A DNA stretch of 58,679 nucleotides, counting the filler, from Actinomycetota bacterium (GTDB taxonomy: Bacteria > Actinomycetota > Actinomycetes > JAKEEW01), in the NCBI GenBank assembly GCA_046725875.1. It is 3 parts of 3 records of this genome, joined end to end, with 100 filler letters (N's around TTAATTAATTAA, not from the genome) between each part and the next. Parts side by side here need not be neighbours in the genome. Positions count along the whole stretch, not along the records: positions 18,372 to 44,632 come from JBKOZJ010000162.1; 2 more parts are not named here. The stretch is one strand, 5' to 3'. The translations under genes were made by a program, and so were the position numbers. Below are positions 18,272-44,732 of the stretch, in pieces; the first letter of the stretch is position 1, and the number at the start of each line of letters is the position of its first letter. The notes under the pieces are model-generated. The model made no database searches. It saw only the letters and a list, made by a program, of their open reading frames with translations, and was not told where the DNA came from.

Positions 18272-18371
18272 NNNNNNNNNNNNNNNNNNNNNNNNNNNNN
18301 NNNNNNNNNNNNNNNTTAATTAATTAANNNNNNNNNNNNNNNNNNNNNNNNNNNNNNNNNNNNNNNNNNNN
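18272..18371. other. Artificial contig linker (N runs around TTAATTAATTAA)
   Basis: N44-TTAATTAATTAA-N44 six-frame-stop spacer. Confidence 0.97.
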
Positions 18372-18420
18372 GCCTTCGACTTCGCCACCCGCCCACCATA
18401 AATCGCCGGGCGCCAAAGCT

Positions 18421-18655
18421 TGATCGCCACACCCCAAACCCCTGATCGCCGCGCGCCACCACCTGATCGCCGCGCCAGCCCCGATCGCCGCGCCAGCCCC
18501 GATCGCCGCGCGCCACCCCCTGATCGCCCGCGAGCCCCTGATCGCCGCGCGCCACCTCCTGATCGCCGCGCCAGCCCCCGACAGCCGCGCGCCACCCCCT
18601 CATCGCCGCGCCAGCCCCCTGAGCGCCGCGCGCCACCCCCTGATCGCCGCGCCTA
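18421..18655 (+). repeat. Degenerate C-rich tandem array, 12 units of ~18-22 bp, consensus TGATCGCCGCG(CG)CCA(G/C)CCCC
   Basis: Counted directly from the sequence; most units start YGATCGCC, three are degenerate. Confidence 0.9.
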
Positions 18656-18691
18656 GAACGCAGCCCGCTGGCCGCCTCAACCCCAACAACC

Positions 18692-18757
18692 ATGATCGCG
18701 GAAATCTGGATCAAACTGTCCGGAAGTGGCCAGTACGATCCACGTTTCGGCGATCAA
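18692..18757. repeat. 66-bp palindromic REP-like element, copy A (upstream of DUF559 gene)
   Basis: ATGATCGCGGAAATCTGGATCAAACTGTCCGGAAGTGGCCAGTACGATCCACGTTTCGGCGATCAA. Confidence 0.85.
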
Positions 18758-18784
18758 GCACCAGATGCGGGATGATCCCCGACC

Positions 18785-19664
18785 GTGGAACTCGCGCAGC
18801 TCGCAGAAGCACAGGGCGGAGTCTTCACCCGCGCGCAGGCGCGCCGCTGCGGCTATTCCTGGAAACAGATCCGCGGGAAGCTTGACTGCACTCACGGGCA
18901 AAGCGCTGACGGTAGCCGGTACACCGATTACGACACCAGCACGTGAATGGGCGGCCTTGCTAACCGCCGGGCGATGGGCCGTTTTCAGCGGACCGTCCGC
19001 AGCGGCCCGGCACGGCTGGGACATGGGCGGACCCCGACCGTGCATCACGGTCCCGCCGAGTCAGCGGCTCACCATGCCGGGTGTCGTCATTTTGCGTTTC
19101 GATCTCCCCGATAGCGACGTCGACGTCCAGGAGTGCGTCCCGGTCACGAGCGGCATCCGGACGATCCTGGACTGCCTGCGGTTATTGCCGTTTGACGACG
19201 CCGCGAGGGTTCTCGATCGCGCGCTACAGAAGCAACTCGTCGACTTCGACGGCTTGTGCAGCCGGGTCATCGGTCTGGCCGGTCAGCGTGGCACACCCAA
19301 GCTGATCAAACTCCTCAAGCAAGCCGGTCTGGGTACGAGATCGGAAGCCGAGCGGTGGTTGTACCGCCTCTTGCGTGCAGCCAACATCGGCGGCTGGTAC
19401 GCCAACTTCCGGGTATCGGACGTCACCGGCTGGATCGGCGAGATTGACGTCGCCTTCCCCGACGTGAAGCTCGCGATCGAGGTCGACGGTCGGGCATGGC
19501 ACTCGGCCTGGGATCGTTTCGAGTGGGATCGAACCAAGCAGAACCGTCTCGAGCTCGCCGGCTGGAAGGTGCTCCGGTTCACCTGGGAGGCGATAACCGG
19601 CCGCCCGGCGAAGGTCCTGGCCGATATTCAGCAGATGCTCGCCGTGCTGCGCGCCCGCCCATAG
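18785..19664 (+). CDS. AbiEi-like N-terminus + DUF559 (Vsr-like) endonuclease; apparent frameshift near 18880
   Basis: Frame from GTG 18785: VELAQLAEAQGGVFTRAQARRCGYS; other frame: PVTSGIRTILD...SEAER...EIDVAFPDVKLAIEVDGRAWH...DRTKQNRLELAGWKVLRFTW. Confidence 0.85.
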
Positions 19665-19731
19665 TGCCGCCCGTCGCCGATATTCAGCAGATGCTCACCG
19701 TTCTGCGCGCCCTCCCCTCGTGCCGCTCCTC
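19620..19731 (+). repeat. 56-bp tandem duplication of the DUF559 3' end
   Basis: GCCGATATTCAGCAGATGCTC(G/A)CCGT(G/T)CTGCGCGCCC... occurs at 19620 and 19676. Confidence 0.85.
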
Positions 19732-19749
19732 GCCGCCACCCATCGATGC

Positions 19750-19815
19750 TTGATCGCCAAAACGTGGATCATACTGTTCGGCAGCGGACACTCTGATCCA
19801 CCTTTCCGCGATCAA
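19750..19815. repeat. 66-bp palindromic REP-like element, copy B (inverted relative to copy A)
   Basis: TTGATCGCCAAAACGTGGATCATACTGTTCGGCAGCGGACACTCTGATCCACCTTTCCGCGATCAA; reverse complement matches copy A at 52/66 without gaps. Confidence 0.85.
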
Positions 19816-19873
19816 CGGATGGGAGCTGAGCCTGGGTCCGCCGCGATGGCGCGGGGCCGACCCACGGGGCATC

Positions 19874-20878
19874 TCAGGCACCCACGGCGGCTCGGATGGT
19901 CTCCTTCAGCGAGCCCATGGTGGCGATGACGGCGGTCGGTTCATAGCCGCAGTGGGCCATGCAGTTGTAGCAGCGCTCGTCCTTGCCCCGCCCGTAGGCG
20001 TCCCAGTCGGTCGTCTCGATGAGCTGCTTGTACGTCTTCGTGTAACCGTCGGCGAGCAGATAGCAGGGTCGCTGCCAGCCGAGGAGCGAGTACGACGGGA
20101 TGCCCCACGCGGTACACGCGAAGTCGATCTTTCCCTCGAGGAAGTCGAGGAACAGCGGCGAGTGGTTGAGCCGCCACCTCTTGCGCCGTCCATCAGCGAA
20201 CGCTTTGGAGAACAGCCCCCGGGTCTGCTCGACGGCGAGCCAATGGTCCTGGTCGGGTGCTTTCTCGTACGCGTACCCGGGTGAGATCTGCATGTTGTCC
20301 ACGCGGAGCTCGTCGTTCAGGTAGTCGAGAACGTCGATGACGTCCTGCGGGGAGTCGAGGTCGAAGAAGGTGGTGTTGGTCATCACCCGGAAACCGGCCG
20401 CCTGAGCCTGCTTGACGGCCGCCACCGCCTGGTCGAATACGCCGTCCTTGCACACCGACGCGTCGTGCCGCTCGCGCAGGCCGTCGATGTGCACCATCCA
20501 GGCGAAGTTGCGGTGCGGCTTGAATTTGTGCAGGTGCTTGGGCATCAAGACGGCGTTCGAACAGAGGAACACAATCTTCTTGCGCTTCAGGAGCTGCCGG
20601 ACGATTTCGTCGATTTGCGGGTGCATCAATGGCTCTCCGCCGGCGATGGAGACCATCGGCGCGCCGCTCTCCTCGATCGCGCCAATTGCCTGCTCGACGG
20701 GCATCCGCTGCTTCAGGATGGTGTGCGGCTGCTGGATCTTGCCGCAGCCGGCACACTTCAGGTTGCAGGCGAACAGCGGCTCGAGCTCGACCAGCAACGG
20801 GAACTTCTCGCGGCGCAGCATTTTCTGCTTGAGCAGATAGTTGCCGAGCCGGATGCTCTGACGCAGTGGCATCGCCAC
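19874..20878 (-). CDS. hpnH: Adenosyl-hopene transferase (radical SAM)
   Basis: MAMPLRQSIR, LEPLFACNLKCAGCGKI (CxxxCxxC), CYNCMAHCGYEPTAV. Confidence 0.96.
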   Translation of the reverse strand: MAMPLRQSIRLGNYLLKQKMLRREKFPLLVELEPLFACNLKCAGCGKIQQPHTILKQRMPVEQAIGAIEESGAPMVSIAGGEPLMHPQIDEIVRQLLKRKKIVFLCSNAVLMPKHLHKFKPHRNFAWMVHIDGLRERHDASVCKDGVFDQAVAAVKQAQAAGFRVMTNTTFFDLDSPQDVIDVLDYLNDELRVDNMQISPGYAYEKAPDQDHWLAVEQTRGLFSKAFADGRRKRWRLNHSPLFLDFLEGKIDFACTAWGIPSYSLLGWQRPCYLLADGYTKTYKQLIETTDWDAYGRGKDERCYNCMAHCGYEPTAVIATMGSLKETIRAAVGA

Positions 20879-41931: not shown

Positions 41932-42918
41932 ATGCCTGCCATCACCGCCGATACGCTCACGCTGCCCCGCGTAGCCGAACCAGCCTCCGATGTTCCGCAG
42001 CGTGCCGTCGTCTCGGTCACGACGGCGCCGTCTGGATTCGAGGGCGAGGGCTTCCCGGTACGGCGCGCGTTCGCCGGCGTGGACCTTGCCGACTTGGACC
42101 CCTTCGTCCATATGGACCAGATGGGTGAGGTTGACTACGGTGCCGGCGAGCCCAAGGGAACTCCCTGGCACCCGCACCGCGGCTTCGAAACCGTCACCTA
42201 CATGATCGACGGCATCCTGCGCCATCAGGACTCCAACGGCGGCGGTGGACTGATCACCGACGGCGACACTCAGTGGATGACGGCCGGCGGCGGGATATTG
42301 CATATCGAGGCGCCGCCCGAGGAGGTCGTGGCGCGCGGCGGGCTTTTCCACGGCTTCCAACTCTGGGTGAACCTGCCGGCCCGTCTCAAGCTGACACCGC
42401 CGCGCTACCAGGACATTCGCGGCAACTCGGTCGCACTGCTCAGCTCGGCCGACGGCGGTGCCCTCCTGAGAGTCATCGCCGGCGAGATCGGCGGCCACCA
42501 CGGCCCGGGGGTCACGTACACCCCGATTACGTTGCTGCACGCAACCCTCGCCCCGGGTGCCCAGGTCCGGCTGCCGTGGCGAGCGGATTTCAATGCCTTG
42601 GCGTACGTGCTTGCCGGGTCCGGCACGGTCGGTTCGCAGCGGCGACCGGTACGCCTTGGCCAGCTTGCAGTTTTCGGCCCCGGCTCGGTGATCAACGTGG
42701 CGGCCAGCGCGGGCCAGGAGAGCCGCAGCCCGCAGCTGGACGTGCTGATCCTCGGCGGGCTGCCGATCCGGGAGCCGGTCGCGGCTTACGGACCATTCGT
42801 CATGAACACGCGGGCCGAGCTGGTCCAGGCGTTCGAGGATTACCAGGCCGGCCGGCTCGGCACGATTCCCGCTGTGCCGGCCGAGCCGCGGCCCGGCCAC
42901 GTAGGCATTGATCGCTAA
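41932..42918 (+). CDS. Pirin family protein
   Basis: DPFVHMD, HPHRGFETVTY, WMTAGGGILHIE, QLWVNLP, YGPFVMN. Confidence 0.95.
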   Translation: MPAITADTLTLPRVAEPASDVPQRAVVSVTTAPSGFEGEGFPVRRAFAGVDLADLDPFVHMDQMGEVDYGAGEPKGTPWHPHRGFETVTYMIDGILRHQDSNGGGGLITDGDTQWMTAGGGILHIEAPPEEVVARGGLFHGFQLWVNLPARLKLTPPRYQDIRGNSVALLSSADGGALLRVIAGEIGGHHGPGVTYTPITLLHATLAPGAQVRLPWRADFNALAYVLAGSGTVGSQRRPVRLGQLAVFGPGSVINVAASAGQESRSPQLDVLILGGLPIREPVAAYGPFVMNTRAELVQAFEDYQAGRLGTIPAVPAEPRPGHVGIDR

Positions 42919-42973
42919 AAGGTGGATCGTACTGTCCGATGAGGGACAGTACGATCCACCTTTCGACGATCAT
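42908..42973. repeat. 66-bp palindromic REP-like element, copy C (free-standing)
   Basis: TTGATCGCTAAAAGGTGGATCGTACTGTCC-GATGAG-GGACAGTACGATCCACCTTTCGACGATCAT; 50-51/66 identical to copies A and B; 20-bp perfect stem. Confidence 0.85.
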
Positions 42974-44632: not shown

Positions 44633-44732
44633 NNNNNNNNNNNNNNNNNNNNNNNNNNNNNNNNNNNNNNNNNNNNTTAATTAATTAANNNNNNNNNNNN
44701 NNNNNNNNNNNNNNNNNNNNNNNNNNNNNNNN
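44633..44732. other. Artificial contig linker
   Basis: N runs around TTAATTAATTAA. Confidence 0.97.

Follow-up and report, generated by a model that had tools for sequence, protein, structure and literature searches.

An AbiEi-like nuclease gene between two copies of a dispersed palindrome in an actinobacterial genome: a probable nuclease-plus-palindrome unit

The window analysed here is a stretch of 58,679 nucleotides (nt), filler included, chained from contigs of a draft actinobacterial genome (GCA_046725875.1; 3.76 Mb in 197 contigs, 67.6% G+C, 89% complete); its positions 18372-44632 are contig C162. Beginning 320 nt inside that contig, a gene for a protein with an AbiEi-like part and a DUF559 nuclease domain is enclosed by two copies of a 66-nt palindrome that recurs elsewhere in the genome. 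The locus is probably one copy, itself probably defunct, of a compact selfish unit of about 1.1 kb with the order palindrome-gene-palindrome, and we lean towards the palindrome as the cognate partner of the encoded protein. The gene belongs with its palindrome: the two are inherited together and are gained or lost in one piece, and the nuclease-plus-palindrome unit is probably mobile.

Short palindromic repeats are common in bacterial genomes. To our knowledge, a cognate enzyme is known only for the repetitive extragenic palindromic (REP) sequences and their hairpin-forming doublets (REPINs), mainly in Proteobacteria, where it is a REP-associated tyrosine transposase (RAYT). The unit described below resembles these systems but is built on a different enzyme, and the evidence points to an enzyme-plus-repeat partnership that has not been described. 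A literature search, with subscription journals and preprint supplements outside it, found no description of a nuclease-palindrome arrangement and no RAYT or REPIN paper that mentions Actinobacteria; its sole hint, a listing of DUF559 proteins at predicted programmed inversions, is taken up below.

The palindromes and their family

Palindrome A (18692-18757) ends 27 nt upstream of the GTG start codon of the gene, and palindrome B (19750-19815) lies 58 nt from the stop codon of the convergent hpnH gene; both, recovered by repeat search and profile search and folding as hairpins, are members of one family, family 1. A third copy, palindrome C (42908-42973), lies 23,158 nt beyond B in this contig, between convergent genes for a pirin and a beta-propeller protein (Pfam assignments), and is solo, i.e. 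not accompanied by a nuclease gene. None of the three is assigned a strand. At the site of C, the spacer of one sister-genus genome (G006; L082, contig C312) is of another sequence, 163 nt long and able to form a hairpin (dG -36.5), and another sister genome has an insert of 711 nt.

The repeat search returned A and B as arms of 68 nt (18693-18760 and 19747-19814) that are 81% complementary. Within the 66-nt units, A matches the reverse complement of B at 52 of 66 positions, and 7 of the 14 mismatches fall into the central columns 32-39. An earlier note on this DNA had described two such palindromes and had called them inverted copies; the match and the central position of half of the mismatches stand, and the label does not, as A and B also agree at 77% in direct orientation and, each copy being itself palindromic, inverted and direct copies are indistinguishable. 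The inward extension of the match reported in the same note is real and amounts to only 3 bases (GCA/TGC), while the family reaches one base further outward (CTTGATC...GATCAAG; full unit CTTGATCG...CGATCAAG). Its remaining local observations hold. The third copy without a nuclease is indeed about 23 kb away; the gene between the palindromes has both AbiEi_4 and DUF559, in two frames; no AbiEii/DUF1814 toxin gene adjoins it, the neighbours being a LigD Prim-Pol gene (via a contig overlap) and hpnH; and the four GATC tetramers, at columns 3-6, 18-21, 46-49 and 61-64, are invariant in the three-copy alignment. The whole genome has 8.07 GATC per kb, where about 3 per kb would be expected from base composition; a Dam-type methylase (PF02086), sought as a reason for these sites, was not found in this genome.

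Folded as DNA hairpins, A, B and C have dG values of -17.9, about -17 (-16.9 to -17.1) and -28.1 kcal/mol, with z-scores of -5.1, -5.5 and -10.4, and 0 of 200 shuffles were as good. A profile of the three copies, a count that the earlier note had suggested, recovers 11 copies of family 1 genome-wide (E at most 6e-13; the next match has E 3.4), of which two flank the nuclease gene and nine are solo. Half-palindromes at contig ends were sought and not seen, all 21 arm matches falling within the 11 copies. The copies are about 78% alike. By crude gene calls, eight of the nine solo copies are located 5-57 nt past the stops of open reading frames (ORFs), three between convergent and five between tandem ORFs. 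The nine solo copies are located next to housekeeping genes, examples being those for pirin, LD-carboxypeptidase, NUDIX, ThiS, nucleoside phosphorylase and shikimate dehydrogenase (Pfam). The idea that decay has gone further in A and B than in the solo copies was rejected: arm mismatches number 7 of 31 in both and 5-9 in the solo copies, except for solo copy C102, where a 1-nt deletion accounts for 17 of 31, and the folding of three solo copies is poorer than that of A and B.

No target-site duplication is visible by eye beside the 11 copies; the only preference is for C before and G after the element. No transposase was found among the neighbours of the nine solo copies by Pfam, and the RAYT-type domain Y1_Tnp (PF01797) has no match in this 89%-complete genome, the control genomes being positive. 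No Rfam family reaches its threshold in 18372-20100, and two matches are far under the gathering scores. A covariance model of the 11 copies found family 1 in none of 40 relatives of this genome; the gene was not found in a relative either, the best protein identity being 47%. The spacing pattern of the four GATC tetramers occurs in two stretches of public genome contigs and in one of metagenome contigs, none of them palindromic. Since family 1 was not found outside this genome in the collections searched, no cross-species comparison of this repeat is possible.

The nuclease gene and its product

The gene lies on the plus strand and is read in two frames. Its N-terminal part (18785-18898, in the frame of the GTG at 18785) contains the AbiEi_4 winged-helix region recognised by Pfam and PADLOC. 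At 18896-18899, GGGC stands in place of one codon, a +1 frameshift that we located by our own reading of the two frames against the homologue alignment, from the spacing of the consensus G-x-W-x5-G-V-x3-A-x2-P-x-T; as no public contig covers these four positions, the frameshift may be real or an assembly error. The rest of the gene (18900-19664, stop codon at 19662-19664) encodes, in the second frame, an AbiEi-like second domain and a C-terminal DUF559/Vsr-type nuclease domain. A tandem duplication of 56 nt (19620-19731, plus strand, 88% identity, D3/D4 in the repeat search) comprises the last 14 codons and the stop, and it shifts palindrome B to 85 nt past the stop of the gene, whereas the downstream palindrome of homologues lies at 0-25 nt. 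The gene between A and B is probably broken. Together with the family likeness of about 78%, the frameshift and the duplication make the unit in the window look old, or dead.

The domain assignments agree across methods. The 53-aa N-terminal fragment matches AbiEi_4 with E 2.2e-5 (24.9 bits, the Pfam cut-off being 25) and the PADLOC AbiEi models with E 3e-7; the N-terminal two thirds of the protein match the latter with E 1e-12 to 3e-22 (1.4e-12 in one match). DUF559 (PF04480) scores 36.5-37.2 bits against a cut-off of 20.6, and the NCBIfam DUF559 equivalog 21 bits, far under its cut-off of 218. Among aligned homologues, 26 of 27 match PF04480 and 22 of 27 match AbiEi_4. Glu192, Gly195, His199 and Asp208 are invariant in this alignment of 27 sequences, and Asp181 and Asp194 are conserved in at least 90% of them; the protein in the window retains every one of these invariant and near-invariant nuclease residues. 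By analogy with the enzyme treated in PMC3239194, as far as the passages drawn on here describe it, these positions may correspond to the catalytic residues of Vsr.

The structure model of the 252-residue second part has a pLDDT of 92.2. Its front half resembles in Foldseek the AbiEi antitoxin (6y8q_A) and Rv2827c (1zel), and for its last 100 residues the matches are the homing endonuclease I-Bth0305I (3r3p, TMt 0.78-0.79) and the DUF559 protein 3hrl (0.78), with Vsr itself (1cw0/1vsr) a weaker match (0.43); the Foldseek E-values are weak (2e-3 and worse) because just 100 of the 252 residues align. Sequence-profile comparison gives E 2.8e-11 for 3hrl and 6.8e-6 for 3r3p. The fold and profile matches combined indicate that a Vsr-type nuclease is preceded, in one fusion protein, by an AbiEi-like DNA-binding module that is complete and has about 190 residues. 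The gene has no transposase domain, and no recombinase is near it.

The pairing of gene and repeat

Two comparisons within this genome bear on the pairing. Matches of at least 40 bits between the upstream and the downstream flank were seen for 4 of 2654 ORFs, the nuclease gene among them; the others are ordinary genes by translation, e.g. GAPDH. The local-alignment score of 43, which we used as a threshold for homologue loci (see below), was reached by none of 300 random genes of this genome (maximum 38). The pairing of gene and palindrome is not chance. One ORF read as a GAPDH gene (C193:19208-20531) has hairpins of another repeat family, family 3, on both sides, and two-sided repeats are for that reason not exclusive to nuclease genes.

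The genome encodes three further paralogues, with 26-29% identity to the protein in the window. The one at C95:13080-14430 (L074) is intact, with AbiEi_4 and DUF559, and is flanked by family 2, whose 17 elements measure 82-83 nt and share the conserved 13-nt ends TGATCCGCCAAGC. The one at C50:8229-9564 (L075), a full-length homologue (hhalign 99.4%), is flanked by family 3, which is built from 47-nt hairpins with arms CAACGGCACATTCAT and has 27 core palindromes at 35 loci with 90% identity. With families 1-3 each found at its own paralogue, one genome holds three enzyme-repeat pairs. The C50 paralogue (L075:310-1329, minus strand) reads E-Y-N-S-V-E-F-H where 90% of relatives have E-x-D-G-x3-H, and by this reading its nuclease may be altered or inactive; its partner, family 3, is the most numerous and most uniform of the repeat families. 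We also considered whether a broken gene goes with fewer and older copies (family 1 with 11 copies at 0.78, family 3 with 27-35 at 0.90) and rejected it: there are only three families, with family 2 at 0.62, and the contrast in copy number and age is no evidence.

Homologues in other genomes of the class

Relatives of the protein were found in 242 of 401 genomes of the class, a tally that takes in six unpublished genomes, with best identities of 45-47%. For the 29 best loci we compared 350 nt upstream with 350 nt downstream of the gene by local alignment, and in 13 of them both flanks carry the locus's own palindrome (score at least 43; shuffles peak near 30). These palindromes are 40-65 nt long and lie 3-70 nt before the start codon (one locus has 219 nt) and, on the other side, 0-25 nt past the stop. 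Their sequence differs in every lineage, with some sharing of end types: CAAGATCGC in two homologue loci and GATCGC in one, next to CTTGATCGC here. The flanking palindrome belongs to a dispersed family in all four genomes tested, with about 20, 20, 11 and 17 places.

The similarity of the palindromes follows that of the proteins, with a mean score of 19.5 for protein pairs of at least 55% identity and of 8.1 for pairs under 45%. Relatives share likeness in both protein and palindrome, which demonstrates co-inheritance, not co-evolution.

Presence and absence in one genus

The cassette locus of another genome, G126, was used as a query (3.7 kb) against 41 genomes of its genus. A cassette is present at one site in five genomes, namely G126 and four others that align end to end or nearly so; in most of the remaining genomes the alignment is split into the two flanks, whose edges fall at positions 1437-1439 and 2445-2451 of the query. 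Among the genomes read at this site, it is empty in three (spacers of 12, 19 and 26 nt), holds a solo palindrome of 49 nt in four (L061, L062, L064 and L065, of G432, G420, G433 and G104) and a degenerate palindrome in one, and in three others is occupied by inserts of about 2 kb that lack the nuclease gene. The palindromes at the site all end in GATTT...AAATC; their inner arms vary between species, both arms changing together. In two genomes the flanking copies are direct repeats with 98% identity; in one the identity is 86%, and in another the copies form a short inverted match. Some genomes of the genus have two or more palindrome sub-families.

A related gene occurs in 15 of the 41 genomes, with up to 2-3 matches per genome. 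Cognate palindromes, counted with a pattern of the genus type whose reversed control gave zero in all 41 genomes, number at least five in 12 of the 15 genomes with the gene and in 1 of the 26 without it (Fisher's exact test, 7e-7, the genomes being kin). No palindrome of this type is found in 18 of the 26 gene-less genomes, and one gene-less genome carries nine. The related cassettes look as if they were gained and lost as blocks, which RAYTs do not, and a mobile cassette therefore fits at least as well as an immobile caretaker gene.

The earlier note had proposed a pairing of nuclease gene and cognate palindrome, and this is borne out by 13 of the 29 homologue loci and by three pairs in the genome under study. 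What it expected of such a pairing was found as well: homologues with flanking palindromes at a frequency that random genes do not approach (13/29 loci against 0/300 genes), repeat sequence that follows the protein clade, higher copy number where the gene is present, and empty as well as solo-palindrome sites at the orthologous position in the genus. A different transposase linked to the repeat, which would have spoken for another enzyme, did not appear, either as a Y1/RAYT gene in the genome or beside the solo copies.

A possible mechanism, and its difficulties

We infer that the enzyme binds, cuts, copies or moves the palindrome. The winged-helix module might bind the symmetric arms of the palindrome, possibly as a dimer with one subunit on each of the two arms, and the nuclease would then nick or cut at or near the conserved GATC-bearing ends. 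AbiEi proteins are reported to bind inverted repeats (PMC7319586, in the part drawn on here), and I-Bth0305I is described as a homodimer with a footprint of about 60 bp around a pseudopalindrome and a staggered cut (PMC3239194, likewise in part). Repair of the break, templated by other members of the family, could copy or homogenise palindromes, and the same repair might carry the gene from one palindrome-bearing site to another, these sites lying at the 3' ends of genes; if the flanking copies recombined with each other, the gene would be deleted and a solo palindrome left. Cutting followed by templated repair would explain the homogenised flanking pairs, the dispersed copies, the insertion as a block and the solo remnants.

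Several observations weigh against a selfish unit of this kind. The enzyme has no strand-transfer chemistry, and we know of no way in which a hydrolytic nuclease alone inserts DNA; binding, cutting and movement are inferred steps, and the palindromes remain intact beside the gene. A and B (78%) are not each other's closest relatives, and a younger subfamily of four solo copies (84-90%) excludes both; the local gene is frameshifted while nine solo copies persist. Base-pair covariation among the 11 copies is not above that of shuffles (132 of 500 reach the value). Five ordinary genes of this genome also have repeats on both sides, the C149 paralogue has no flanking repeats within 400 nt, and 16 of the 29 homologue loci, one of them (L047) from an unpublished genome, have no flank-to-flank match within 350 nt. 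Some loci have a direct and others an inverted flanking pair, a mixture that suits neither an element with simple terminal inverted repeats nor a target duplication of the simple kind. The association of gene and palindrome within the genus rests on related, non-independent genomes.

Nor is there a clean empty site for two of the solo copies, the intergenic DNA of the sister genus being too diverged, or for the A-gene-B locus in the sister-genus genomes compared. In three of these hpnH is 92-93% identical and is followed, past its stop, by a convergent gene, so that synteny ends at the hpnH stop and the site is not comparable. By eye, and without a family search, this convergent gene reads as sortase-like.

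Alternative explanations

The palindromes could instead be independent host repeats, used as landing pads by a homing-type nuclease gene that inserts at or beside them, much as some insertion sequences target REPs. We consider this unlikely, although it fits the eight solo copies out of nine that follow a stop codon at 5-57 nt, where REPs are usually found, the solo palindromes without a gene at the genus site, the gene-less genome with nine palindromes, and a nuclease domain akin to that of a proven homing endonuclease. It sits poorly with each paralogue having a repeat family of its own and with families that change with the protein clade; the 18 of 26 gene-less genomes without any palindrome are hard to explain for an independent host feature, and the Y1_Tnp search left no other candidate enzyme that could have made the repeats. 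An autoregulated gene, in which the upstream palindrome would be an operator for the AbiEi-like domain and the downstream one a terminator or insulator, is less probable still. The protein would then be a fused defence or toxin-antitoxin-like protein, and the solo copies leftovers or the sites of a small regulon. The N-terminal two thirds of the protein do match AbiEi models (PADLOC) and an AbiEi structure, the upstream palindrome is just 27 nt from the start codon, and AbiEi is described as autoregulating via inverted repeats (PMC7319586, in the passages used here). An AbiEii partner is missing, however, between the LigD Prim-Pol and HpnH genes; the same palindrome recurs after the stop codon and at about 10-35 places beside unrelated housekeeping genes, where the solo copies follow genes instead of preceding them; conserved neighbours enclose either the unit in full or none of it; and a promoter and terminator scan, weak for this type of genome, found nothing of either kind inside the palindromes.

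There is very little to be said for a switch, in which the palindromes would be recombination sites for the inversion or loss of a gene segment (phase variation) and the dispersed copies incidental. DUF559 domain-containing proteins are listed as 14.3-fold enriched at predicted programmed inversions in the portion of PMC9881135 consulted, and the flanking copies are inverted in some loci; against this, many flanking pairs are direct, no recombinase is nearby, the metagenome contigs, which cover fragments of the locus only, contain no recombinant joints, and families of 11-35 dispersed copies would be left unexplained. We return to the nuclease-plus-palindrome unit for the comparison with known systems.

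Relation to known systems

A close parallel is with REP/RAYT systems, in which an enzyme gene is likewise flanked by short palindromic repeats that are also dispersed extragenically (here two flanking and nine solo copies), and one gene goes with one repeat family, as do the three paralogues and three families here. In Pseudomonas fluorescens SBW25, a separate REPIN family goes with each of three RAYTs, according to the part of PMC3337134 drawn on. The 66-nt hairpin, with its two inverted 30-nt arms, is also reminiscent of a REPIN doublet. The enzymes differ: the one here is an AbiEi-like/Vsr-type hydrolytic nuclease, whereas a RAYT is an HUH-Y1 (IS200-like) transposase, a type for which the Y1_Tnp search gave no match in this genome. 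The same excerpt of PMC3337134 describes RAYTs as single-copy and unable to transpose, in contrast to the related cassettes here, which have a patchy distribution in one genus (15 of 41 genomes) and are either there in full or missing altogether; and copy numbers here are in the tens, not the hundreds. Transposons with terminal inverted repeats and miniature inverted-repeat transposable elements differ in that here neither the gene nor the surroundings of the solo copies hold a transposase and no target-site duplication is visible.

With the EDxHD/Vsr-like homing endonuclease I-Bth0305I (3R3P) the protein shares a related catalytic domain, by profile and by fold. The multidomain homodimer and the pseudopalindromic footprint of about 60 bp described for that enzyme (PMC3239194, in part) are comparable to the 66-nt palindrome in size and symmetry, and the related cassettes of the other genus are present or absent at a fixed site, as homing elements are. 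The gene here differs from those of homing endonucleases in that it is free-standing between genes, outside any intron or intein, and its putative target is not split, being intact on both sides of the gene and repeated genome-wide; the DNA-binding part, unlike that of I-Bth0305I, is AbiEi-like. The winged helix and the second domain match AbiEi of AbiE, a type IV toxin-antitoxin system. The unit is not an AbiE toxin-antitoxin pair: it has no AbiEii/DUF1814 gene, carries a fused nuclease instead, and has repeats on both sides as well as dispersed. Stand-alone DUF559 proteins (3HRL; Escherichia coli YcjD-type) belong to the same nuclease family and are single-domain proteins of about 100 residues, in contrast to the fusion here with its AbiEi-like module of about 190 residues in front.

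More broadly, we judge the chances to be about even that AbiEi-like/DUF559 genes with their palindromes make up a widespread, undescribed class of selfish elements, in which a hydrolytic Vsr-type nuclease, in place of a transposase or recombinase, creates, maintains and rides on families of long palindromes, as a counterpart of REP/REPIN systems in high-GC Gram-positive bacteria, with several systems per genome and each enzyme having its own repeat. If so, it would become possible to test where the dispersed palindromes of a large and well-studied bacterial class come from; a concrete job would be found for DUF559, a domain of unknown function that is very common (242 of 401 genomes here); thousands of genes labelled 'AbiEi antitoxin domain protein' would be mislabelled; a homing-type nuclease could shape genome architecture with no strand-transfer enzyme involved; and each family would be a natural pair of a long (50-80 bp) symmetric site and a protein that specifically binds and cuts it.

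Surroundings of the locus

There is no ORF other than the nuclease gene between palindromes A and B. On the right, the convergent gene with its stop at 19874 has radical-SAM and DUF3463 domains and is taken as hpnH-type. On the left, 32 nt from palindrome A, is a tandem array (18420-18660, no strand assigned; families D1/D2 of the repeat search) of alternating 20- and 21-nt units, CTGATCGCCGCGCGCCACCCC and CTGATCGCCGCGCCAGCCCC, which contain GATCGCCGCGC; the string TGATCGCCG is common to the array and the end of palindrome A. The end of contig C162 is at most 50 nt from the left edge of the array, and the array reappears in reverse at the start of contig C191 (L073:1-190; 86% over 208 nt), with a different number of units, which indicates that the assembly broke inside it. 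As C191 runs from the array into a LigD Prim-Pol gene, that gene is the probable left neighbour of the nuclease locus. The joins between the contigs of the window, at 18272-18371 and 44633-44732, are runs of N with a TTAATTAATTAA linker; an Lhr-type helicase ORF that ends at 18319 belongs to a different contig and is no true neighbour. Among sequencing runs, the matches to the locus were soil-metagenome contigs of small share, and no RNA data set was listed. Contigs of one run (X1) match 18608-18811, 18943-19114 and 19164-19374 at 90-99%. The X1 contig that covers 18608-18811 differs at 10 bases and by a deletion of 1 nt and an insertion of 4 nt, so that another sample contains a close strain variant of this stretch, from the end of the array through palindrome A to the start of the gene.

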